Shown here: positions 15,902-50,292 of the stretch, in pieces
Layout: the number at the start of each line of letters is the position of its first letter
Numbering within the stretch: position 1 is the first letter of the stretch
Assembly (NCBI GenBank): GCA_000004985.1
Contig: GG738874.1
Reading direction: 5' to 3' (one strand)
DNA from: Naegleria gruberi
Lineage: Eukaryota
DNA length: 64,000 nucleotides
Position numbers and translations under genes: made by a program
The notes under the pieces: generated by a model
Told to the model about the DNA's origin: nothing
What the model saw: only the letters and a program-made list of their open reading frames with translations
Database searches by the model: none

Positions 15902-17199
15902 ATGCCCAATAATCAGCAGTTTAGAGCAATTCCTTCATCTTCATCACGAGCACTCGACATTTCTTCATCTACAGATCAAATACTTAACGGAGATTCGAAT
16001 AACAAGTTTCCAACAAGAGATTGTACCTCCTCAAACAGTACATCCACAACAACTGAAGATTATTCAGGGGAAGATGGTGCTGACTATCAATATGAAGATG
16101 GAGCTCTTCAAGAAGAAACAGAAGAAACTAATGGAGACGAAACTTATTCTAATCTTGATTTGAATACTGTCAAGTTATTTGTTGGACAAATTCCATACTC
16201 TTATGGTGAAGATAATTTATATCCATTATTTTCACAATTTGGTCCAGTTGCTGAAATTGTTGTGATTAGAGACAGATTTACATTCAAGTCAAGAGGATGT
16301 GCTTTCGTCTCATTTCGTAGTAAGCAAGATGCGGACACATGCATTAGAGAACTCAATCAAAGATTGAAACTGCCACCTGTAAGTATATTTGATATGTGAT
16401 AATTTTAACTTATTCGAATGGTTTCAATTGAACACCTTTTTTATTCGAAACTTAGTTAAATACCCCTCTCAGAGTTAAATATGCCTACACTGAGCAACAA
16501 TTAGATATTGTTAATGATAATTTTGTAAATAATGCTCCAAATCTAACTACTTCATCCTCGCCTAATGATTCCAATAGTGAAAAATCTCAAGATTTGACAA
16601 TTGCCTCAAATTTCCTCTCCTGTCTCAATATAGATAAGTATGAAATTGGCGTGCCTCATCCAGAAAACAAGCTCTTTATCAGAAATATTCCAAAGAATGT
16701 TACTGAAGATGAGCTCTCAACTCTATTCGAAAGTTTTGGCGAAATTCTTGACGTTGTCGTATTGAGAACGACCATTCATACTTCAAAGGGATGTGGTTTT
16801 ATCAAATTTACCAATTCAGAATCAGCTGATATGGTCATTAACACCTTCAAGAGAGAAATCATTTCACCAATTCAAGAATATCAACAAGGAGCTCAACAAG
16901 AAGGAACAACTATTGGTGGACCTTCTAATCAAAGATTGGTCGAGTTGACTAACAAGCTCCTAGAGAGTAGTTTCCTTATGAAGGGAGCTATCACTCCTCT
17001 ATTGGTTAGATATGCTGATAAGGATTATGTACCAAGTCAATCAACACAAGATGAACATGTCTATAATTCAACAACTACTGGTGGTCATGATTATCACTCT
17101 ACAAATGGAAATCATGGAGGTCATTACAATCCAAGAAGAAGGAAATCTTATCCATTGTCTTATCATAATAATAATAATAATAGAAGAGGATCCTATCAT
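15902..17199 (+). CDS. RNA-binding protein with at least 2 RRM domains (CELF/Bruno-like), 3'-truncated by the assembly gap; exon 1 15902..16378, intron 16379..16455, exon 2 16456 to the gap
   Basis: RRM1 is LFVGQIPYSYGEDNLYPLFSQFGPVAEIVVIRDRFTFKSRGCAFVSF (RNP2/RNP1). RRM2 is KLFIRNIPKNVTEDELSTLFESFGEILDVVVLRTTIHTSKGCGFIKF. PLRVKYAYTEQQ and PLLVRYADKD linkers resemble the ELAV/CELF 'VKFAD' motifs. The reading frame runs into the N run at 17200. Confidence 0.7.
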
Positions 17200-17991
17200 N
17201 NNNNNNNNNNNNNNNNNNNNNNNNNNNNNNNNNNNNNNNNNNNNNNNNNNNNNNNNNNNNNNNNNNNNNNNNNNNNNNNNNNNNNNNNNNNNNNNNNNNN
17301 NNNNNNNNNNNNNNNNNNNNNNNNNNNNNNNNNNNNNNNNNNNNNNNNNNNNNNNNNNNNNNNNNNNNNNNNNNNNNNNNNNNNNNNNNNNNNNNNNNNN
17401 NNNNNNNNNNNNNNNNNNNNNNNNNNNNNNNNNNNNNNNNNNNNNNNNNNNNNNNNNNNNNNNNNNNNNNNNNNNNNNNNNNNNNNNNNNNNNNNNNNNN
17501 NNNNNNNNNNNNNNNNNNNNNNNNNNNNNNNNNNNNNNNNNNNNNNNNNNNNNNNNNNNNNNNNNNNNNNNNNNNNNNNNNNNNNNNNNNNNNNNNNNNN
17601 NNNNNNNNNNNNNNNNNNNNNNNNNNNNNNNNNNNNNNNNNNNNNNNNNNNNNNNNNNNNNNNNNNNNNNNNNNNNNNNNNNNNNNNNNNNNNNNNNNNN
17701 NNNNNNNNNNNNNNNNNNNNNNNNNNNNNNNNNNNNNNNNNNNNNNNNNNNNNNNNNNNNNNNNNNNNNNNNNNNNNNNNNNNNNNNNNNNNNNNNNNNN
17801 NNNNNNNNNNNNNNNNNNNNNNNNNNNNNNNNNNNNNNNNNNNNNNNNNNNNNNNNNNNNNNNNNNNNNNNNNNNNNNNNNNNNNNNNNNNNNNNNNNNN
17901 NNNNNNNNNNNNNNNNNNNNNNNNNNNNNNNNNNNNNNNNNNNNNNNNNNNNNNNNNNNNNNNNNNNNNNNNNNNNNNNNNNNNNNNNNNN
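17200..17991. other. assembly gap (792 N); it truncates the 3' ends of two convergent genes
   Basis: Uninterrupted run of n characters from 17200 to 17991. Confidence 1.
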
Positions 17992-18464
17992 ATTTCATTT
18001 TCCGATTTCTTCTTGTATACCTTTGATGGAAGACCAATGACAGTTTCCTTTTCCTTATTCCACACTCTGAATTTGCTAAATACTTCTGGATTGCACAAAT
18101 CAGGCATTTGAAGCCCAATTCCTGATGTATATAATGCTCGCAGTGATTCCTTTTGCAATCTCAAGTTTGGTGTAAGTTTTGGATGTTTTTTATCAAATTC
18201 TTTATCGGAATGTTCCAAATATTTATCAATCAATTCAATCATTTCCTCCTCAGTACAACAAGTTTTCTTTACTCTAATATCTGCACCGAAAATTTGTTCG
18301 TGAATATAAAGATATCTCTTGAATGTTGGCACAACTTTAGTATCTCTGATTTGTTTTTGTTCCTTCTTTTTAAAGTCGTGAATACCCTGCTTCTTCATAT
18401 CGATAGCCTTTCGGGATTTTGGATGAACTGGTTTGGTGGTTGTGGCGTTTGCTCCTTTGGTCAT
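17992..18464 (-). CDS. TMA16: TMA16 (translation machinery-associated protein 16) homolog. The N-terminal ~158 aa are present; the C-terminus is lost in the gap
   Basis: ATG at 18464 gives MTKGANATTTKPVHPKSRKAIDMKKQGIHDFKKKEQKQI...CTEEEMIELIDKYLEHSDKEFDKK...GIGLQMPDLCNPEVFSKFRVWNKEKETVIGLPSK. This matches the TMA16 pattern (HP.SRKA...ELIERYL...G.GL.IPD..N...K.FREW) recalled from memory. The ORF runs into the gap. Confidence 0.55.
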
Positions 18465-40499: not shown

Positions 40500-40722
40500 A
40501 TGAAATTCAATTCTTTCAATCTCCAATTCTCTATTATTTATTTAATAATAGATCTATTCTCTCGGAATTTGCATGGAGTACACCAATTTAATGCAAACAA
40601 TTTAACAATAGTTACCCTTGTGAAAAACATCAAGGATCCAAAAAGTAGTGAAATTCAACAATAATTTTTCACCCAACATCATTAAATTTAATTTTATTTT
40701 TAAAATTCACAACTTCAAAAAA

Positions 40723-41553
40723 ATGTCTGAGCAAAACACCAAGAAGAATAAACCAATCAAAGCCAAAAAGAGTGCTGATAAGAAACTTGAACAAAAAACC
40801 GATGAAGAAATTCAAGATATGATCACAACAACACAATCTGGAGATGTTATGGGAGAAGTTGAAGAATTGGATTTTCCAGAAGATGATTTCTTGAAGGAAA
40901 TTGAAGAACAATTTGAAATGGTTTCTGCTCAACAAGCTTCGGAAGCTGCTGAATCGAGGAAAAAGAATAAAGTAGCTATCACTGAAGAACCAGTTCCAAA
41001 GTCAGATGCTGAATTAATTATGCAATCCGAGAATTCAGTGAAATATCAAAAGGCTCCAGTTTCATTCAGAGTTAATATTGTCAGAAAGACGATAAAGATG
41101 GTTATTATTCTTCACAAGATTCCAGAAAAGTATATTAAACTCGATGTTGAGGATGACCATTTCACAGTTGATACTCTTGGATATACTAGGAAATTATGGT
41201 TACAAAGAAAGTTCCCAGGTTTGATTAAAGTTAACAAGGAAAAGGTTGCTGCTCAATTTTTGAAGAATGGATTGGTTTTGGTAACTCTGCCAATTGTATC
41301 AATTCCAAAGGAAACATTTGACCATCATTTAGGATTAATCAAAAAAAAGCATGAAAGTAGAAAGATCAAATTCCCAACACCTGTCAAACAAAGTATTATT
41401 AAGAGTGCTATCAATTTGGAAAAGAAACGTAAACGAAGAGAAAGACAAAAGGAAAAGAAGGAGTTTATTGCACAAAATATGGACTTGAAGCAAAAGAAGA
41501 AGAAGAAGAAAAAGACCAATACAACTGAAACAACAACTGCTGAACAAAAGTAA
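40723..41553 (+). CDS. acidic protein with a CS/p23-like (HSP20-like) domain, Lys-rich C-terminus
   Basis: ATG 40723. Central ...APVSFRVNIVRKTIKMVIILHKIPEKYIKLDVEDDHFTVDTLGYTRKLWLQRKFPGLIKVNKEKVAAQFLKNGLVLVTLPIV resembles a CS domain. Family assignment is tentative. Confidence 0.4.
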   Translation: MSEQNTKKNKPIKAKKSADKKLEQKTDEEIQDMITTTQSGDVMGEVEELDFPEDDFLKEIEEQFEMVSAQQASEAAESRKKNKVAITEEPVPKSDAELIMQSENSVKYQKAPVSFRVNIVRKTIKMVIILHKIPEKYIKLDVEDDHFTVDTLGYTRKLWLQRKFPGLIKVNKEKVAAQFLKNGLVLVTLPIVSIPKETFDHHLGLIKKKHESRKIKFPTPVKQSIIKSAINLEKKRKRRERQKEKKEFIAQNMDLKQKKKKKKKTNTTETTTAEQK

Positions 41554-41583
41554 AAAGTGTGAATCAAAATTTTTATAGAAATT

Positions 41584-44500
41584 CTACTCTTTCTTGGATG
41601 AAGGAATGAAAACTTCCTTAGCTGGGGCTCTATTATTGTAATTGGACGACATACTGAATCCATAACTTCCTGCTGTACAAATGCAAAGAACATCACCTTC
41701 ACGTGTTTCACTAGATATTGGTCTATCATTACCAAAAACGTCACCACTTTCACAAATTGGTCCCACAATATCGGCAACCATTGTACTTTCAGCTGGATCA
41801 TCACTATCAGGATTGCTGATCTTGGACAAGTTGACAATTTCATGATGGGAATTGTACAAGGTTGGTCTGATGAGTGAGTTCATACCAGTTTCAATACCAA
41901 TAAATAATTTGAAATTCTTATTCTTAATTTGTGTAACACGAGCTAACAAGACACCAGCATTGGCTGTCAAAAATCTTCCAGGTTCCATACAGAGCTTGAC
42001 ATTTGTTGGATTATTATTTAACTTGAATTCGGTCATAGCTTTAGCAACTTCGCCCAAATCCAATTCAGTTTGCTTGTAAGGCACATAAGGAACACCAAGA
42101 CCACCTCCACAGTCAATTAATTTAACATCTTTAGCCAATTTTGGATATTCTGAAATGAGTTGAGTCAATGTAGTAGCAGTCTTCTTCCATGCTTCAGCTT
42201 CATCCAAAATACCACTTCCAACGTGAGCATGCAATCCCATAACTGTAATACTAAATTGTTCACACAATTCAATGGCTTGAGGAATGTCACTAATGTGAAT
42301 ACCAAACTTGGATTGAACACCACTTGTTTTAACCTTAGCATGGTGACCCTTACCTGCACCTGGATCAATTCTCAATAGAACAGACTTACCCCTCAGTAAT
42401 TCTGACCAATTCATGAGTGGATAAAGAGAATCAATGGTTAACATGACTCCCAATGAGATAGCTTCTCTATATTCCTTCTTTGGAGCAAAGTTTGGAGTGA
42501 ACAAGATTCTACTCTTATCAATATTAGGGAAGAGATTACAGACCATTCTCACTTCATCAATGGAGACACATTCCAAACCGAAACCGATACCTTCGAATAT
42601 CTTGAGAATTTCAACATTTGGATTGGACTTGATAGCAAAGAAAATGGTATCAACTGGTCCTCCACACTTAGTTGAAATATTGATGAGCTTTTGAGCATTG
42701 GCATAAAATTGATCAACATCATAAACATAGAGAGGTTGATCTTCAGCTTGCATCAATTCGAGAAGTTGATTTTGCTTGACACGCCACCAAACATGTTTAC
42801 CACTGACATCGTTAATCTTTTGTTTTTGAGTTTCGAAAAGTTCAGTCCAAGATGGTCCAATATATTGGGAATCAATGGCTTGCTTAATAAAGACCCAATC
42901 GTGTAATTCTTTCAATAATTGTTCATTGGAATTGTTTTGATCGAGCAAGAAAGTCAAATTGACATCAGAGGCAGCCAAGGCAACAGAATGAATCTTTTGT
43001 CCAGAGAAATACTTCAAACCAGATGAAAGACGAGGCAAGAATGATCTAATATTCTTACCAATCAATGACAAGGCAGCACATGGTCCAATAATTTCAACTC
43101 TGCAATTCATAGATCTTAAATCATTAACAAGCTTGTTCAAAATATCATTGTCCAACTTGGCTGTAGCATCAAAAGTGATGGTAATATTGGCCTCAGAGGT
43201 TGTAACAAAATCTACAGAAATATTATACTTTTTGAATTTGGAGAAAACATCGGCCAAGAAACCAACTTTTTGCCACATATCCAATGTATCAATAGATACC
43301 ATAAGAATGTCTCTTCTGATACAGATGCACTTGACGTGTGGTGTCTTTTCTTCATAGGTTAAACTTGTGACGTGTTCTTCTGATGACTTTTCTTCATCAT
43401 TTTCACTTTGAATGAGAGTAATATATTCCTTATCAATTTGCCCAGATTGGAAACGTTTCAAAAGCTTGACAGATCTAATTCTAATTTGAATATCGAATTC
43501 TTGTAAGAGCTTGAGACTTCTTGGTTGTAAAATCTTAAAGTTATCAGAGGTGGCAATTTCTAATGCTTCATGATAAGATAATTCCAAAACAAACTTGGCA
43601 TTTGTTGTTTTCATGTCAGAGGATGTGTAAATTCCACCAGTATTTGTCCAAAAGTCCACTGAACCAATATCAAGTTTAGTAGCATAAATTGCCACAGAGA
43701 GGTCAGAATTTGAACCTCCAACTCCAAAGAGAACAACATCACCCTTTCCATCACAACCCATATTTCCTTGAGTGATGAGAATGTCTGCTTCACTGGTTTT
43801 TAATTCTTCAATTAAATCAGTATCAACGAGTGGAGAATCATAATTGGCTCTCAAATATTGGTCTTGCTTTCTTTGCTCGTAAATGGTAAAGTTGACCTTA
43901 TCACTGTGGGTCACTTCTTCAACAGCCGTAGTTAAATACTTCTTGCTATCTAACAAGGCAGCTGAAAATGAATGATTAATTTCTTCAGATTGTAAGAATT
44001 CTAACAAGAAATTGCAAACCATTTCACTATAATATCCAATAATTTTAGCAATAACCTTTGGTGTAGATTCTGATAATAAATTAACTCCAATAAGGGATTG
44101 TTTCATCTTTGCTCTATATTCATTAAAAGTAACAGTTTCAAGAGCTGGATATTGCTTGTACAATTGACAGAGTGGTTCTAAAAATTCAGTCAAATATCTT
44201 TCAACAATACTTTCAGATTGAAGTGATTCAAATGAATCATCATCCTTCTTTTGTGATAATGATTGAATATATTTCAACATTTTAGTACCTTCATCTTCAT
44301 TCAATGTAGAAGGAGCAACAATAATAATCTTTGCATTTTCATCCAATTCATGTAAACGTTTCTTCTCCGATACAATTTGGGACAAGATAAAATTCAAACC
44401 CTTCTTTTTAGTTAATAAACCAGAATCAAACGTGCACAAGTAAAATTTAGAATGATGATGAGTTTTCATCAATGAAAGAGTGTTTGATAAAACGGAACCC

Positions 44501-44646
44501 GAAGCAAAAACAGGAGAAGTTGAATATGATGATAAACTATTTATATGATGTGATGATGATTCAACTCCTTCAAATACTGTATTCTCATCCAACAAACGCT
44601 CCTCTCTTCTGAAGAAACTATCCGAACTATCAGAATTGTTCATCAT
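41584..44646 (-). CDS. lysAC: bifunctional aspartokinase / diaminopimelate decarboxylase (LysC-LysA fusion), about 1020 aa, intronless, with a ~100-aa Ser-rich N-terminal extension
   Basis: First ATG at 44646 (the ORF track starts at an upstream TTG). Aspartokinase core ...VVLFGVGGSNSDLSVAIYATKLDIGSVDFWTNTGGIYTSSDMKTTNAKFVLELSYHEALEIATSDNFKILQPRS... plus an ACT region. C-terminal PLP-dependent DAP decarboxylase (AIKSNPN Lys-PLP site, ...CESGDVFG..., ...CICTAGSYGFSMSSNYNNRAPAKE). Confidence 0.85.
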   Translation of the reverse strand: MMNNSDSSDSFFRREERLLDENTVFEGVESSSHHINSLSSYSTSPVFASGSVLSNTLSLMKTHHHSKFYLCTFDSGLLTKKKGLNFILSQIVSEKKRLHELDENAKIIIVAPSTLNEDEGTKMLKYIQSLSQKKDDDSFESLQSESIVERYLTEFLEPLCQLYKQYPALETVTFNEYRAKMKQSLIGVNLLSESTPKVIAKIIGYYSEMVCNFLLEFLQSEEINHSFSAALLDSKKYLTTAVEEVTHSDKVNFTIYEQRKQDQYLRANYDSPLVDTDLIEELKTSEADILITQGNMGCDGKGDVVLFGVGGSNSDLSVAIYATKLDIGSVDFWTNTGGIYTSSDMKTTNAKFVLELSYHEALEIATSDNFKILQPRSLKLLQEFDIQIRIRSVKLLKRFQSGQIDKEYITLIQSENDEEKSSEEHVTSLTYEEKTPHVKCICIRRDILMVSIDTLDMWQKVGFLADVFSKFKKYNISVDFVTTSEANITITFDATAKLDNDILNKLVNDLRSMNCRVEIIGPCAALSLIGKNIRSFLPRLSSGLKYFSGQKIHSVALAASDVNLTFLLDQNNSNEQLLKELHDWVFIKQAIDSQYIGPSWTELFETQKQKINDVSGKHVWWRVKQNQLLELMQAEDQPLYVYDVDQFYANAQKLINISTKCGGPVDTIFFAIKSNPNVEILKIFEGIGFGLECVSIDEVRMVCNLFPNIDKSRILFTPNFAPKKEYREAISLGVMLTIDSLYPLMNWSELLRGKSVLLRIDPGAGKGHHAKVKTSGVQSKFGIHISDIPQAIELCEQFSITVMGLHAHVGSGILDEAEAWKKTATTLTQLISEYPKLAKDVKLIDCGGGLGVPYVPYKQTELDLGEVAKAMTEFKLNNNPTNVKLCMEPGRFLTANAGVLLARVTQIKNKNFKLFIGIETGMNSLIRPTLYNSHHEIVNLSKISNPDSDDPAESTMVADIVGPICESGDVFGNDRPISSETREGDVLCICTAGSYGFSMSSNYNNRAPAKEVFIPSSKKE

Positions 44647-45062
44647 TTTTTTTAATTTCAATTTTTATTTAAAAACGAAAATTATAATTGTTAATACCCA
44701 AATATTAGATGTGATGATATCCAAGATGAAGTAATGACCTGTTTAATATTATTATAATTTAATCATGGTGATGACCTATTCATCTCAGAAAGTGGCCCTA
44801 ACCTTTTTTGGATATCTATTACAGTGTAACATTACTATGGGGATATCAAGAGATGATTTTGGCGCCAAATTTCAAAGCTTTGAAAATATCAAGGCTTTGT
44901 TAATTTAAAGTTTAACTCAATAATAGCAAGTAAAGGGAAACAAACTTTGTGCAAAGTAAAAAAAACAAACACAACATCACTCTCCATCATTCTCCTGATT
45001 GAGTCAATTCAAACAAGCCTTTCAGCACAAGATACAACACAGCAATCGTTCTCATCATTAGC

Positions 45063-46337: not shown

Positions 46338-48275
46338 ATGGGTCAACATCACACCTCCAATAATTCTGATGTAGCAACAATTCAAAATCCAGAAACATCA
46401 ACATCATCACTCGCTTCCAGTAGTCAGAATTTGATAGAACCAACACCACCTCTCACTCCCCGAAGTAGAAAACAAAGAGCAATATCAAATTTAAATTTAT
46501 CAACTGAATCCCTGTCAAGTCAAACGTCAAATTCATCAACACAAAATGTTAAAATATTATTACTAGGACTTAATGGAGCAGGTTTGTTTTTTCTCTTAGT
46601 TTTTAATATTTACTTTTGGATCCAAAATAGGAAAATCAACAATTATTAAAAAGTTGAAGGAATATATAACAGAAAAGAATTCATTACACGATGAAAATCT
46701 TGTAGATCATCTTGCTCTGAACAAAACTTTTAGAGATATTATTCATTTCCATGCATTGAATGGAATTAAACAATTAATTTTGGCATCTGAAAAGCTTGAC
46801 ATTTCCATTCTACCAAGACACTCTGAACAAAAGAATGATATTGAATTTGCCATCAGTTATTTGAGTAATTTACATTTTCGTTATGGAGAACATGTGTTGA
46901 CAAGTGAAGTTGCAAGATTAATGAAATTATTGTGGGAACAACGTGGAGCTAAGGAAATTCATTCGGAATTTATTGAATATAGAAATCAACAAGCACAATT
47001 GTTGCAACAGAAACAATTGAACGAAGCTGTTTCTGAAAATGCAACTGAAAATCATGAAAATCAAGAAAATCATGATGAAAAACAAAACGAAACTAGTACA
47101 AATGAAACTAATGCCAGTGCAACAACTGAAACTGCTAATTTGAATGAAACAGCAACTGAACCTTCAGCAGCTACTGTTGCCGAAACCGAAACAACTGAAA
47201 CCAATAATGAAGTGAACGAAACTGTTGCCGAAACTCCACAAGTCAGAGTTGATACTGAAGAAGAAGATGTAAGAGCAGTTGCCATCAATGACAAACACTT
47301 CAACGCAGGTGAAATCAATTGCTTTACTCTCTATAAGGATTTGTATAATTTGGACTTTTTCATGAGTAATATTGACAGAATTTCAGAGTTTGACTACGTA
47401 CCAACCGATGAAGATGTAAAATATTGTCAAACTCACTTGAAAGAAGAAAAGAAAGGTATTGAAGAAATTGAATTTGACTTTAGTGGTTCTAAATATACAA
47501 TTTATTGTGTGGAAGGTCAGAATAATGATGGAAGAAAGTGGCTCTTCCTCTTCCAAGGTGTGGACATTGTCTTATTCTTGTGTCCAATTGGTGATTTTGA
47601 TGTCATTCCATCATCACTCGATAGAAAGAATATTGTTCGTGAGAGGTAAGTGAAAATGATCTTGTTTTTATTGAACTATTTATTGTAAAATTATACTCAA
47701 CATACAGTTTGGACTTTTTCAGTAAAATGTGTAATAGTAAATGGTTCAGAAATACACCTGCCATCCTACTCCTCTCCAAATGGGATTCATTCCGTGAAAA
47801 GATTACCAATACTCCTCTAACTTTCTGTTTTGAAGATTACGATGGCGATCATCACAGTTATCAACATGCTCTCAAATTTCTCATTTCAAAATTCAATCAT
47901 GTGAGAGATAAGGAAGGAAAAGGACTCATCAATACCAATATTTATCAACAATTTTCCACAATGGACATGACTCACGAAGAGTTGGCCAATAATTTGGGAG
48001 GAACCATTAAGAATATTCGAATTGAACAGAAAGAAATGGAAAGAAAACAAAAGAGAGAATCCACTCATCGATTAGCTGGCGATCCAAACTCACCCAATAT
48101 TAGCTCAGCAGGTAGTCACACCCATTCCAATTCAAGTGGTGAGGCCATTTCACCAAAAAGTCCAGCTAGGTCAAATAGTGTGAATTCTTCGCCCTCTTCT
48201 GTCTCTACATCAGGAACTGAAAATATCAAACACAAATTATTTGCAGGACTTTTACAAAAATTAAAGAAAAAGTAA
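46338..48275 (+). CDS. heterotrimeric G-protein alpha subunit (divergent). Three exons: 46338..46581, 46631..47645, 47708..48275
   Basis: MG... N-terminus (myristoylation-type). P-loop KILLLGLNGAG|GKSTIIKKL. Switch/NKxD region ...YVPTDEDVKYCQTHLKEEKKGIEEIEFDF...YCVEGQNNDGRKWLFLFQGVDIVLFLCPIGDFD...RER|S|LDFFSKMCNSKWFRNTPAILLLSKWDSFREKI... and C-terminal ...FSTMDMT... The middle exon holds an acidic/Thr/Asn-rich insertion (ENHENQENHDEKQNETSTNETNASATTE...). Introns of 49 and 62 nt with GT..AG. Confidence 0.75.
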
Positions 48276-48443: not shown

Positions 48444-49238
48444 ATGCTTTCATTTCGTGCAAGCCAACTCAGACCACAAACTTTGTGTATTGTTACAGGT
48501 GCTTCTAAAGGCATTGGGAGGGAAATTACAAAACAATTATCGGAATGGGGAGTACATTGTGCAACGATAAGTAGATCGGAAATTGAGGCTAAGGATTTAT
48601 TTCCTAATCAATATCATTTTCCATGTGATGTTTCCAATGCTAAACAAGTCTCGGAGACAATTAAACAAATTTCGCAACAATTTGGTAAAAGTCATGCAAT
48701 GAATATGTTGGTGAATGCTGCTGGAATTTCCAAAGACGGACTATTGTTGAGGTTTTCTCAAGAGGATGTGGAGGAAATTATGAATATTAATTTGATGGGA
48801 ACTATTAATGTTTGTAAGAGCTCTCTCCGATACTTTATGTTGAGTCATTCGAGTGGTGAAATGCCTTCATCAATTGTTAATATTTCTAGTGTGATTGGTG
48901 GAACTCATATGACCAATGTTGGACAATCAGTTTATGCAGCATCTAAGGCAGGAGTTGTTGCCTTCTCTCAGAATTTATCTCGTGAGTTGCTTGGAAGAGA
49001 TGTCAGAGTTAATGTTGTTAGTCCTGGATTCATTGAAACTGAAATGACCAAACACATTTCGGATTCCATTTCAAAAACATCAAGTGAACAAAAGAATGAA
49101 ATGGTTCAAAAGATTGAAAAGGTGAGAATGGGAAAGCCAAAAGATGTTGCCAGTATGGTTCGATTCCTTCTTTCAGAGCAATCAGAATATATTAATGGAC
49201 AAAATCTTGTTGTGGATGGTGGATTATCGTTATTGTAA
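48444..49238 (+). CDS. 3-oxoacyl-ACP reductase-like SDR (FabG/CBR4-type), 264 aa, possible mitochondrial presequence
   Basis: CIVTGASKGIGREIT Rossmann motif, NAAG, and catalytic S...YAASKAG (YxxxK). N-terminal MLSFRASQLRPQT is basic and hydroxylated. Confidence 0.8.
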   Translation: MLSFRASQLRPQTLCIVTGASKGIGREITKQLSEWGVHCATISRSEIEAKDLFPNQYHFPCDVSNAKQVSETIKQISQQFGKSHAMNMLVNAAGISKDGLLLRFSQEDVEEIMNINLMGTINVCKSSLRYFMLSHSSGEMPSSIVNISSVIGGTHMTNVGQSVYAASKAGVVAFSQNLSRELLGRDVRVNVVSPGFIETEMTKHISDSISKTSSEQKNEMVQKIEKVRMGKPKDVASMVRFLLSEQSEYINGQNLVVDGGLSLL

Positions 49239-49245
49239 AAATTTA

Positions 49246-50292
49246 TTAATGCTCCTCTTTAGGGAAAAGGAAATCGGTAGTTAATGCCAATTTGACATTG
49301 TCTAACAGTGTCTTTTTCAGTTCAGGAGTATTAACAACCCAAACGTTTGTCACGTATCCTCTCTTTTGCAAACTCTTCAGGTAATCCACTGTTGCAAGAG
49401 AAGCATCAAAACCTAAAACAGCACTTCCAATAAATGCTGGAATAACTGTAATATTGGCATAATACCACATCTTGTCCAAAATCTTGGTAAGAGCTTCTAA
49501 TGATGAATAGATAATCTTATCTTTCAAATTCTTATTAGAACCTTCACTCAATTCACACAATACTGTTGGGAAGTCACCAGAATAAACTCTCTTCAAACCT
49601 GGACCTTTAGATTCCGTTGGTCTACTGTGCTTCATCCAATCACCCAATAATCCTCTCTTGAAAAGTAAATTGGTGACAACCTTTGGATTCAACTTTCTCA
49701 TGACATACAATAAAATTGGATTGAAACTGGCTACTGTTGATTGACGATAAAGAGATGGATACTTCTTATATAATTCGTCTAACTTTTTAGCCATGAGTGC
49801 CAATCTAGAATATTGTTTGACTTCAATCATAATGACTTGTTTTGGATCCAAAGAAAAGACAAAATTGATATATTCTTCAAGTGTTGGGATTTGTTCCTTT
49901 CCACTTTCATCATCAATATATCTGTAATATTTCTTAACTTCCTCAAGAGTCAATTGACCAATTCCAATACTATTCTTTCCTTCCATTTTATCAATACCAT
50001 AACAAACTCTTTGCATGGCAAGAGTATCATGGAATACTACAATTTCTCCATCTTTAGTAAGTTGACAATCAAGTTCAACACCATCAGATCCATGCTCAAT
50101 TGAGTAACGAACAGCACTAAGAGAATTTTCTGGAATGCTCTTAGTCTTTATATAACGACAACCTCTGTGTCCAATCAAAATATCATTAAAGAATGATGCA
50201 TCAGGTGACTTTGGTGCTCGGAACAAATAAAACAAGGCAACCAATACCAAAGCAACCACACAACCCAATAGAGCCAATGTAATCAAACACAT
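49246..50292 (-). CDS. glycerophosphodiester phosphodiesterase (GDPD family) with an N-terminal TM anchor, 348 aa
   Basis: ATG 50292. MCLITLALLGCVVALVLVALFYLF anchor. GDPD catalytic motif ILIGHRGCRY...PENSLSAVRYSIEHGSDGVELDCQLTKDGEIVVFHDTL. Tail-to-tail with the preceding SDR gene, 7 bp apart. Confidence 0.8.
   Translation of the reverse strand: MCLITLALLGCVVALVLVALFYLFRAPKSPDASFFNDILIGHRGCRYIKTKSIPENSLSAVRYSIEHGSDGVELDCQLTKDGEIVVFHDTLAMQRVCYGIDKMEGKNSIGIGQLTLEEVKKYYRYIDDESGKEQIPTLEEYINFVFSLDPKQVIMIEVKQYSRLALMAKKLDELYKKYPSLYRQSTVASFNPILLYVMRKLNPKVVTNLLFKRGLLGDWMKHSRPTESKGPGLKRVYSGDFPTVLCELSEGSNKNLKDKIIYSSLEALTKILDKMWYYANITVIPAFIGSAVLGFDASLATVDYLKSLQKRGYVTNVWVVNTPELKKTLLDNVKLALTTDFLFPKEEH

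Follow-up and report, generated by a model that had tools for sequence, protein, structure and literature searches.

A LysA-type diaminopimelate decarboxylase predicted to carry a fused pseudo-aspartokinase/ACT module in Naegleria gruberi

The heterolobosean Naegleria gruberi (Discoba) carries on contig GG738874.1 (assembly GCA_000004985.1) a single-exon gene that joins an aspartokinase-like region to LysA, a diaminopimelate (DAP) decarboxylase. The gene lies on the minus strand of the 64,000-nucleotide stretch of DNA analysed here (the window, to which all coordinates refer unless another contig is named), within an uninterrupted open reading frame (ORF) at 41584..44661. An earlier reading made from the letters of the DNA alone (the sequence-only reading) gave this ORF 1025 amino acids (aa), which is correct if counting starts at the TTG at 44661; the biological start is instead the first ATG, at 44646, which is both the annotated and the conserved start and yields 1020 aa before the stop codon at 41584-41586. 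The 1020-aa translation is identical to the annotated N. gruberi protein over its full length (100% identity, 100% length; XP_002676115.1, EFC43371.1, NAEGRDRAFT_68709, UniProt D2VIK3), the record being placed on a 401.6-kb contig. The same reading framed the gene against amoebozoa, a comparison that misplaces this organism. Two short ORFs at 41325-41843 (-) and 42434-42694 (+) overlap the long ORF and were taken as its by-products.

Profile searches, alignment and fold matching place kinase, ACT, ACT and LysA elements collinearly in one polypeptide (Table 1). The best NCBIfam model is NF006515 (bifunctional aspartate kinase/DAP decarboxylase), which scores 750.6 bits, below its cutoff of 802, and is matched only across profile positions 95-860 of 861. 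Pfam ACT matches are all sub-threshold, and the Pfam scan gives no match for residues 65-270. The Ser-rich N-terminal extension, earlier put at ~100 aa, was found to comprise ~64 residues; it is predicted to be disordered, is weakly constrained and lacks a counterpart in bacterial fusions, the sole stretch common to the Naegleria sequences being a short 'S-P-x-S-T-S-P ... K-T-H-H-H-S' motif. Organellar or mitochondrial targeting by this extension was considered and is judged unlikely, given its predicted disorder, its poor conservation and its net acidity in N. gruberi (net charge of -3 in residues 1-25); N. fowleri has a more basic N-terminus.

Table 1. Coding sequence, protein regions and convergent neighbour of the LysA fusion gene in the window. 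CDS, coding sequence; pLDDT, predicted local distance difference test; dN/dS, ratio of nonsynonymous to synonymous substitution rates; PLP, pyridoxal phosphate.
Feature	Position	Strand	Remarks
Complete single-exon CDS NAEGRDRAFT_68709	41584..44646	-	1020 codons + stop at 41584-41586
Residues 1-64, Ser/Thr-rich N-terminal extension	44455..44646	-	pLDDT <30 (residues 1-63); dN/dS 0.35
Residues 65-270, aspartokinase N-lobe-like, without catalytic motifs	43837..44454	-	pLDDT 80-90; dN/dS 0.085
Residues 271-400, aspartokinase C-lobe-like	43447..43836	-	sole Pfam AA_kinase-matching part; dN/dS 0.023
Residues 401-432, Naegleria-specific acidic low-complexity insertion at the kinase-like/ACT1 boundary	43351..43446	-	pLDDT <50 (residues 402-423)
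Residues 433-590, two ACT domains	42877..43350	-	matches aspartokinase III residues 294-448; dN/dS 0.005
Residues 591-625, inter-domain linker with fusion-type 'VWWR' motif	42772..42876	-	alignment
Residues 626-1020, diaminopimelate decarboxylase LysA, fold-type III PLP enzyme	41587..42771	-	motifs; dN/dS 0.037
Convergent downstream neighbour, ~300 aa, without Pfam domain	40648..41553	+	synteny anchor

The C-terminal half keeps every catalytic motif of LysA and looks fully active. It matches Orn_Arg_deC_N (1.5e-42) and Orn_DAP_Arg_deC (1.1e-22) in Pfam, and residues 627-1020 pass the TIGR01048 lysA equivalog model with 310.8 bits against a cutoff of 297.9. Comparison with solved structures retrieves the Aquifex (2P3E, 5.5e-53) and E. 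coli (1KNW, 1.1e-49) enzymes, and the top 14 relatives are DAP decarboxylases without exception, other specificities scoring much lower. Lys673, within AIKSN, aligns with Lys54, the PLP lysine of E. coli LysA, and His808 with His191. Cofactor motifs comprise HAHVGSG (His806/His808) and GGGLG (847-851), and those for the substrate and partner subunit comprise EPGR (888-891), IRPTLY (Arg927/Tyr931), CESGD (965-969) and GSYG (Tyr995); none of GGGLG, EPGR, RPxxY, CESGD and the GxYG tyrosine varies among the aligned fusions. The LysA fold predicted by AlphaFold2 superposes on DAP decarboxylase 1KO0 with a template modelling (TM) score of 0.79 in Foldseek. The sequence-only reading had recognized a complete DAP decarboxylase and listed the motifs AIKSNPN, CESGD and GSYGFSMSSNYN; the profiles and solved relatives bear out the former, and all three motifs are present in the translation. 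As judged from these motifs, the enzyme would convert meso-DAP into L-lysine.

The N-terminal half had been described in the same reading as a complete aspartokinase with catalytic core and ACT, a claim that fails on substituted catalytic residues and weak model matches. Pfam AA_kinase passes its gathering score, yet only over profile positions 111-234 of 234, the C-lobe, and the aspartokinase models fall far under their cutoffs (TIGR00657, 109.1 vs 208.7; TIGR00656, 119.1 vs 402; NF006570, 149.5 vs 455). In comparison with solved structures, E. coli aspartokinase III (AKIII) is matched only from residue 147 onward. Kinase residues were mapped on an alignment of four Naegleria-type sequences, seven bacterial fusions and E. 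coli LysC, using AKIII numbering. In all four Naegleria-type sequences, Lys8 is replaced by Thr/Ser, Gly10-Gly11-Thr12-Ser13 by Asp-Ser/Ala-x-Leu, Ser39 by Pro, Thr45 by Asp/Asn, Phe184 by Asn, Arg198-Gly199-Gly200 by Gly/Ser-Ser/Pro-Asn plus an insertion, and Asp222 by Asn/Lys. N. gruberi itself has (Y)LCTFDSGL for the KFGGTS loop, APSTLNEDEG for the SAxxGxTN motif, FGVGGSNSD for LGRGGSD, WTNTGG for WTDVPG and, in the C-lobe-like domain, SDNFKILQP for GAKVLHP; its residue at the Glu119 position is Ser207, with Glu208 adjacent. Retained in the Naegleria-type sequences are Ser201, Asp202, Thr221 and Tyr227, together with Lys257 in three of the four. Over the 16 kinase positions scored, Naegleria keeps 4-5 and the named bacterial fusions 14-16.

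In AKIII, Lys8 and Asp202 are reportedly catalytic, and Glu119 and Arg198 are said to bind aspartate. The kinase half is accordingly described here as a putative pseudo-kinase: an amino-acid-kinase fold with both ACT domains, from which the residues assigned to ATP-phosphate and aspartate binding are gone. Given this loss of catalytic and substrate-binding residues, the protein would not be bifunctional, and because the kinase half is not a complete enzyme, a DAP pathway operating de novo cannot be deduced from the gene. The fold appears to persist. In the AlphaFold2 model (mean pLDDT 68.8, confident for residues 65-240), the N-terminal half matches full-length aspartokinases in Foldseek, with TM 0.83 over 540 columns for 2CDQ and 0.75 over 537 columns for 2J0W.

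The dead kinase half is under strong purifying selection and hence still functional. Region-wise dN/dS values (Table 1) were obtained by the Nei-Gojobori method for N. fowleri versus N. lovaniensis, at an unsaturated dS of 0.47-0.74; the ACT1-ACT2 pair is the most constrained region of the protein, beyond the fused LysA (0.005 vs 0.037), and the N-terminal extension is the least. The ACT region matches AKIII residues 294-448 with E = 1.8e-14 (phmmer). Ten positions of the E. coli enzyme (M318, G323, F324, L325, S338, V339, D340, T344, S345 and E346) are all identical in Naegleria; every other kinase-dead lineage examined keeps 8-10 of the ten, and intact fusions average 9.1. We take these positions to be the lysine-site and feedback-resistance region of AKIII. 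Since constraint on the protein peaks in the ACT pair, where these presumed lysine-site positions are kept, the dead half may serve the decarboxylase as a regulatory module that senses lysine and/or dimerizes. The protein is best described as a putative LysA with a fused pseudo-aspartokinase/ACT module.

The gene is resident in the nuclear genome. Its neighbours are eukaryotic and include an SMC-family ATPase gene, a gene for Mpv17/PMP22 and one for G-alpha that is split into several ORF pieces, which agrees with the earlier description of the surroundings as eukaryotic, with an SMC and a G-alpha gene. GC content is level through the gene and its flanks. Relative synonymous codon usage (RSCU) correlates with that of seven neighbouring ORFs at r = 0.93 (neighbour-versus-neighbour controls, 0.84-0.92) and GC content at third codon positions (GC3) is 0.29, as in the neighbours, confirming that codon usage is host-like. 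Single-exon orthologues with downstream genes in common are present in N. fowleri (1085 aa), N. lovaniensis (1057 aa) and a Naegleria-like metagenome contig. The convergent downstream gene keeps its position unchanged in N. fowleri, N. lovaniensis, contig L004 and Willaertia; because this neighbour has stayed beside the gene in these relatives, the fusion genes and the Willaertia gene can be regarded as orthologues. Searches of the literature by gene identifier found neither expression data nor a paper naming NAEGRDRAFT_68709, and those combining Naegleria with DAP or lysine biosynthesis found no direct mention.

Other features of the window were also recorded. The G-alpha gene (46338-48275, +) consists of at least three ORF pieces (46338-46649, 46654-47649 and 47709-48275), which, unlike the single-exon LysA fusion, is consistent with short introns. 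Beyond it, genes for a short-chain dehydrogenase (48444-49238, +) and a glycerophosphodiester phosphodiesterase (49246-50292, -) are convergent with 7 bp between them, compact and apparently intronless. A 2-kb stretch at 16001-18000 has a GC content of 0.207, compared with ~0.33-0.38 elsewhere in the window.

In Willaertia magna, the syntenic gene encodes LysA alone. The protein (KAL9654824.1, P0017; JBEGDK010000039.1, L005 10001-11269) comprises 422 aa, shares 62-63% identity with the LysA half in Naegleria and is joined to Naegleria in trees with 100% bootstrap. Its N-terminus (…VSGSHVWWRKKRNELL) is the counterpart of the linker in the fusions, the same downstream genes adjoin it, and another gene ends ~290 bp upstream. 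No trace of the kinase/ACT half was detected within 10 kb on each side of the locus. Given that the Willaertia protein starts at the linker and no remnant of the N-terminal half lies nearby, Willaertia has deleted the dead half, and since this syntenic orthologue is LysA alone, LysA is likely the core function of the gene.

The wider family is overwhelmingly bacterial. An exhaustive homologue search returned 12771 matches, among which the best non-eukaryote-type ones are bacterial fusions. Intact LysC-LysA fusions were counted in the genomes of at least 590 bacterial species, all 33-41% identical to the Naegleria protein (over ~830 residues), and are carried by Xanthomonadales/Lysobacterales, Steroidobacteraceae, Woeseiaceae, Legionella and Coxiella, with scattered Myxococcota, Rhodothermaceae, Bacteriovoracaceae and others. 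The fusion architecture is therefore bacterial, as had been proposed, collinear with the bacterial proteins and intronless; what does not carry over is bifunctionality. Eukaryote-type sequences were found only in Naegleria, Willaertia and three contigs (P0014, P0015 and P0016), besides one separate sequence from a Pigoraptor set; a profile search built from an alignment of eukaryote-type sequences returned eight proteins, none of them new. The three contig sequences are low-GC, kinase-dead fusions that group with Naegleria and have no shared synteny. P0014 (L006 6139-8955, Logan SRR23962323) has NIF-phosphatase and HEAT neighbours and P0016 (L007 1278-4193, JGI 3300062347) has UCH and EMC7 neighbours, and at least one of the three contigs is clearly eukaryotic. 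The TPPII neighbour on L006 is not eukaryote-specific, as its best named matches are only ~37% identical and include Planctomycetes.

Neighbour-joining (NJ) trees with bootstrap unite P0014-P0016 and Naegleria at 82-89% when ACT and LysA are combined, at 76-87% in a second set with named bacteria, and at 23-30% with LysA alone. Nesting within a eukaryotic clade had been set as a refutation of horizontal transfer. Such a clade is indeed seen (76-89% bootstrap with ACT), yet it is small and lies inside the bacterial family, and thus calls for an earlier date of the transfer, not for its rejection. Legionella sequences are always nearest to Naegleria by distance, and no bacterial sister group exceeds ~20% NJ bootstrap. 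A Legionella-like donor was considered, being closest by identity and distance and plausible since Legionella infects amoebae, and is not put forward here, a sister relation having an NJ bootstrap of ~2% or less. Among the bacterial sequences seen, the highest identity to Naegleria LysA (50%, residues 620-1014) is that of Legionella steelei (NZ_LNYY01000021.1, L083), which apparently lacks a kinase/ACT half and has a 'PWWE' linker-like motif upstream, hinting at a similar truncation. Transfer from bacterium to eukaryote, at an age before the Naegleria/Willaertia split and possibly older, is well supported. The eukaryotic neighbours, host-like codon use, synteny and absence of introns across Naegleria species and the overwhelmingly bacterial family argue for an old horizontal acquisition; with synteny extending across Naegleria species, the metagenome contig and Willaertia, an old transfer that has since ameliorated, as first suggested, is the best reading.

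Kinase-dead, ACT-intact fusions are not confined to Naegleria and are scattered over the tree beside intact ones. Bacteria-labelled examples include P0042 (Bacteriovoracales MDC0254261.1) and P0031 (Riflebacteria MFC1744242.1), some such fusions bearing the database name 'bifunctional'. Further kinase-dead sequences are P0055, P0010/P0013, P0030, P0048, P0056, P0059 and P0060; the last, from the EukProt Pigoraptor chileana set, is placed apart from Naegleria and might derive from kinetoplastid prey. An association of kinase-dead fusions with a predatory lifestyle was considered and rejected: Bacteriovoracales P0042 is degenerate, yet a Bacteriovoracaceae genome and two Myxococcota genomes have intact fusions. 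Separately, an ENA contig encodes an apparently intact LysC-LysA fusion (P0024, 1338 aa) with an extra N-terminal region of ~470 residues resembling a multi-pass membrane transporter. It is proposed, tentatively and at somewhat less than even chances, that lysine-sensing ACT machinery was re-wired from kinase feedback to control of the fused decarboxylase, a pseudoenzyme switch that would mark out a recurring and so far unrecognized 'pseudo-LysC-LysA' subfamily. As part of this proposal, and with the same reserve, the kinase-dead, ACT-intact state may have arisen repeatedly, in the Naegleria-type clade, the Pigoraptor-set sequence, Bacteriovoracales, Riflebacteria and elsewhere.

Comparison with known systems clarifies the position of the protein. 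With bacterial fusions (NF006515/PRK08961; Legionella massiliensis P0005, Xanthomonas, Lysobacter, Steroidobacteraceae) it shares the order of kinase N-lobe, C-lobe, ACT1, ACT2, 'WW' linker and LysA, as well as ACT and LysA motifs. It differs from them in its eroded kinase positions, three lineage-specific insertions, the 64-residue disordered N-terminus, a score below the NF006515 cutoff and residence in a eukaryotic nucleus. E. coli AKIII (LysC; 2J0W, 2J0X) resembles it in predicted fold and in the ten allosteric-region positions, whereas the Naegleria protein has other residues at Lys8, the Gly-rich loop, Arg198-Gly-Gly and Asp222, and a Ser at the Glu119 position; with these catalytic residues replaced, it cannot be filed as an aspartokinase. 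Stand-alone LysA enzymes (Aquifex 2P3E, E. coli 1KNW/1KO0, Arabidopsis 6N2A) have all the catalytic motifs in common with it (TM 0.78-0.79) but lack the 625-residue non-catalytic N-terminal module, and in sequence the Naegleria enzyme is nearer the LysA moiety of fusions than plant or algal LysA. The LysA of euglenozoans (Bodo saltans, diplonemids, Rhabdomonas) offers a physiological parallel, that of a bacterivore proposed to make lysine from cell-wall DAP (PMC7052976). The single candidate for such a protein among the sequences here, P0060, is likewise kinase-dead. Willaertia LysA, the syntenic orthologue, differs from the Naegleria protein in having lost the aspartokinase/ACT half altogether. 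Another non-catalytic, aspartokinase-derived regulatory module is found in the ACT-only beta subunits of alpha2-beta2 aspartokinases (Corynebacterium, Bacillus AKII), which arise from a start internal to the gene of an active kinase and have a kinase as their target of regulation. In Naegleria, by contrast, the kinase fold is kept whole but dead, and its fusion partner is a decarboxylase.

We favour, with moderate confidence, a joint reading in which a bacterial LysC-LysA fusion was domesticated into an active LysA with a pseudo-aspartokinase/ACT regulatory module that salvages DAP as lysine. A bifunctional bacterial fusion would have moved into the ancestor of Naegleria and Willaertia, possibly earlier into a wider eukaryotic group, and become fully domesticated, with enzyme activity left in the C-terminal half alone. 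This half would act as a PLP-dependent meso-diaminopimelate decarboxylase yielding L-lysine, and the ACT/kinase-like half may bind lysine, and perhaps a nucleotide through the remaining Thr221, Tyr227 and Lys257, and act on the dimeric decarboxylase as modulator or scaffold. As Naegleria feeds on bacteria, meso-DAP freed from their peptidoglycan could be converted to lysine in one step. By analogy with other bacterivores, salvage is the most likely physiological role. Lysine production from bacterial cell-wall DAP/meso-DAP has been proposed for the sister phylum Euglenozoa, several bacterivores of this group possessing DAP decarboxylase only, and a bacterial-type murein-recycling etherase has been noted in N. 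gruberi (Butenko et al. 2020, PMC7052976, the former in its supplementary text). A 2026 survey lists lysA among the prokaryote genes transferred into anaerobic ciliates (PMC13198582).

Some observations weigh against this reading. With Asp202, Thr221, Tyr227 and Lys257 kept and a Glu beside the Glu119 position, residual nucleotide binding or an unorthodox activity of the kinase half is conceivable. The alignment supplied to AlphaFold2 held intact bacterial fusions and may have biased the model, and with it the TM scores, toward the aspartokinase fold. The conservation of the ACT pair could stem from dimerization rather than ligand sensing, and the N-terminal half is not indispensable for LysA function, as Willaertia does without it. 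Finally, the present data are compatible with other dap genes elsewhere in the Naegleria genome.

The point on dimerization leads to the alternative that the dead half is purely structural, a scaffold for dimerization or stability that senses no ligand. ACT domains mediate aspartokinase dimerization and DAP decarboxylase is an obligate dimer; strong constraint is compatible with an interface role, and Willaertia LysA stands alone. However, each independent kinase-dead lineage preserves 8-10 of the 10 positions taken as the lysine site and the ACT pair has a lower dN/dS than the enzyme itself, and we regard a mere scaffold as rather doubtful. Less probable still, and unlikely overall, is that LysA is active and the kinase dead but that the enzyme catalyses the final reaction of a full DAP pathway, whose other genes are unlinked and possibly transferred as well, and serves de novo synthesis rather than salvage. 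Whole DAP pathways have been gained by transfer in other phagotrophs, e.g. Monosiga (PMC4046809), and any further dap genes would suit this alternative. Against it stand the lysine contained in defined media for Naegleria and the loss of the kinase from the fusion, which suits a lineage in which aspartate has ceased to supply the pathway. In addition, related Discoba usually possess LysA either by itself or with DapF as its sole companion (PMC7052976).

The remaining alternatives fare worse. The C-terminal half might act on another substrate (ornithine, arginine, D-ornithine/D-lysine or carboxynorspermidine), given that the family holds many specificities and the lysA equivalog cutoff was only just passed; the uniform identity of its solved relatives and the presence of the DAP-decarboxylase-typical Arg/Tyr pair (IRPTLY), EPGR and CESGD make this very unlikely. 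A bifunctional enzyme, combining an active lysine-sensitive aspartokinase with an active DAP decarboxylase and hence the first and last steps of the de novo pathway, would account for the order collinear with bacterial bifunctional enzymes, the passing AA_kinase score over the C-lobe, the retention of Asp202, Thr221 and Lys257, and the purifying selection on the kinase-like region. It is nonetheless highly improbable, as Lys8, the Gly-rich loop, Arg198-Gly-Gly, Ser39/Thr45 and Asp222 are replaced throughout the Naegleria-type sequences while bacterial fusions stay near-complete, every aspartokinase equivalog model falls far under its cutoff, and the sister genus Willaertia deleted the kinase half. 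Bacterial contamination of the N. gruberi genome, which the sequence-only reading had named as a possible refutation, or its mis-assembly has in its favour that the nearest non-eukaryote-type relatives are bacterial. Its probability is negligible: gene order is the same in four independent assemblies, which we count as refuting it, and in addition the neighbours are eukaryotic and spliced, codon usage equals theirs, and identity to any bacterium is only ~40%.

The reading of the protein as a LysA with a pseudo-aspartokinase/ACT module has consequences for annotation and for biology. Proteins of this type are named 'predicted protein', 'ACT domain-containing protein' or 'bifunctional aspartate kinase/diaminopimelate decarboxylase' in databases; the last name claims too much where kinase activity is lost, and metabolic reconstructions relying on it would wrongly assign the entry step of the aspartate pathway. 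The acquisition of LysA by phagotrophs and the salvage of DAP are known themes. As far as our searches show, no earlier description exists of the conserved kinase-dead module, of its repeated occurrence in further lineages or of its loss by deletion in Willaertia. The enzyme is present in the pathogen N. fowleri and absent from humans, but it is a questionable drug target, since DAP should be scarce in brain tissue. The family provides a case of a catalytic domain reduced to a non-catalytic module under tighter constraint than the enzyme to which it is fused, with the deletion in Willaertia as a natural control. For Naegleria, the gene would establish a concrete link between bacterivory and amino-acid supply, with cell-wall DAP turned into lysine, in parallel to the proposals for euglenozoans. 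If the proposed re-wiring of the ACT machinery is true, Naegleria would be a bacterivorous eukaryote with product-regulated salvage of lysine from the peptidoglycan of its prey.

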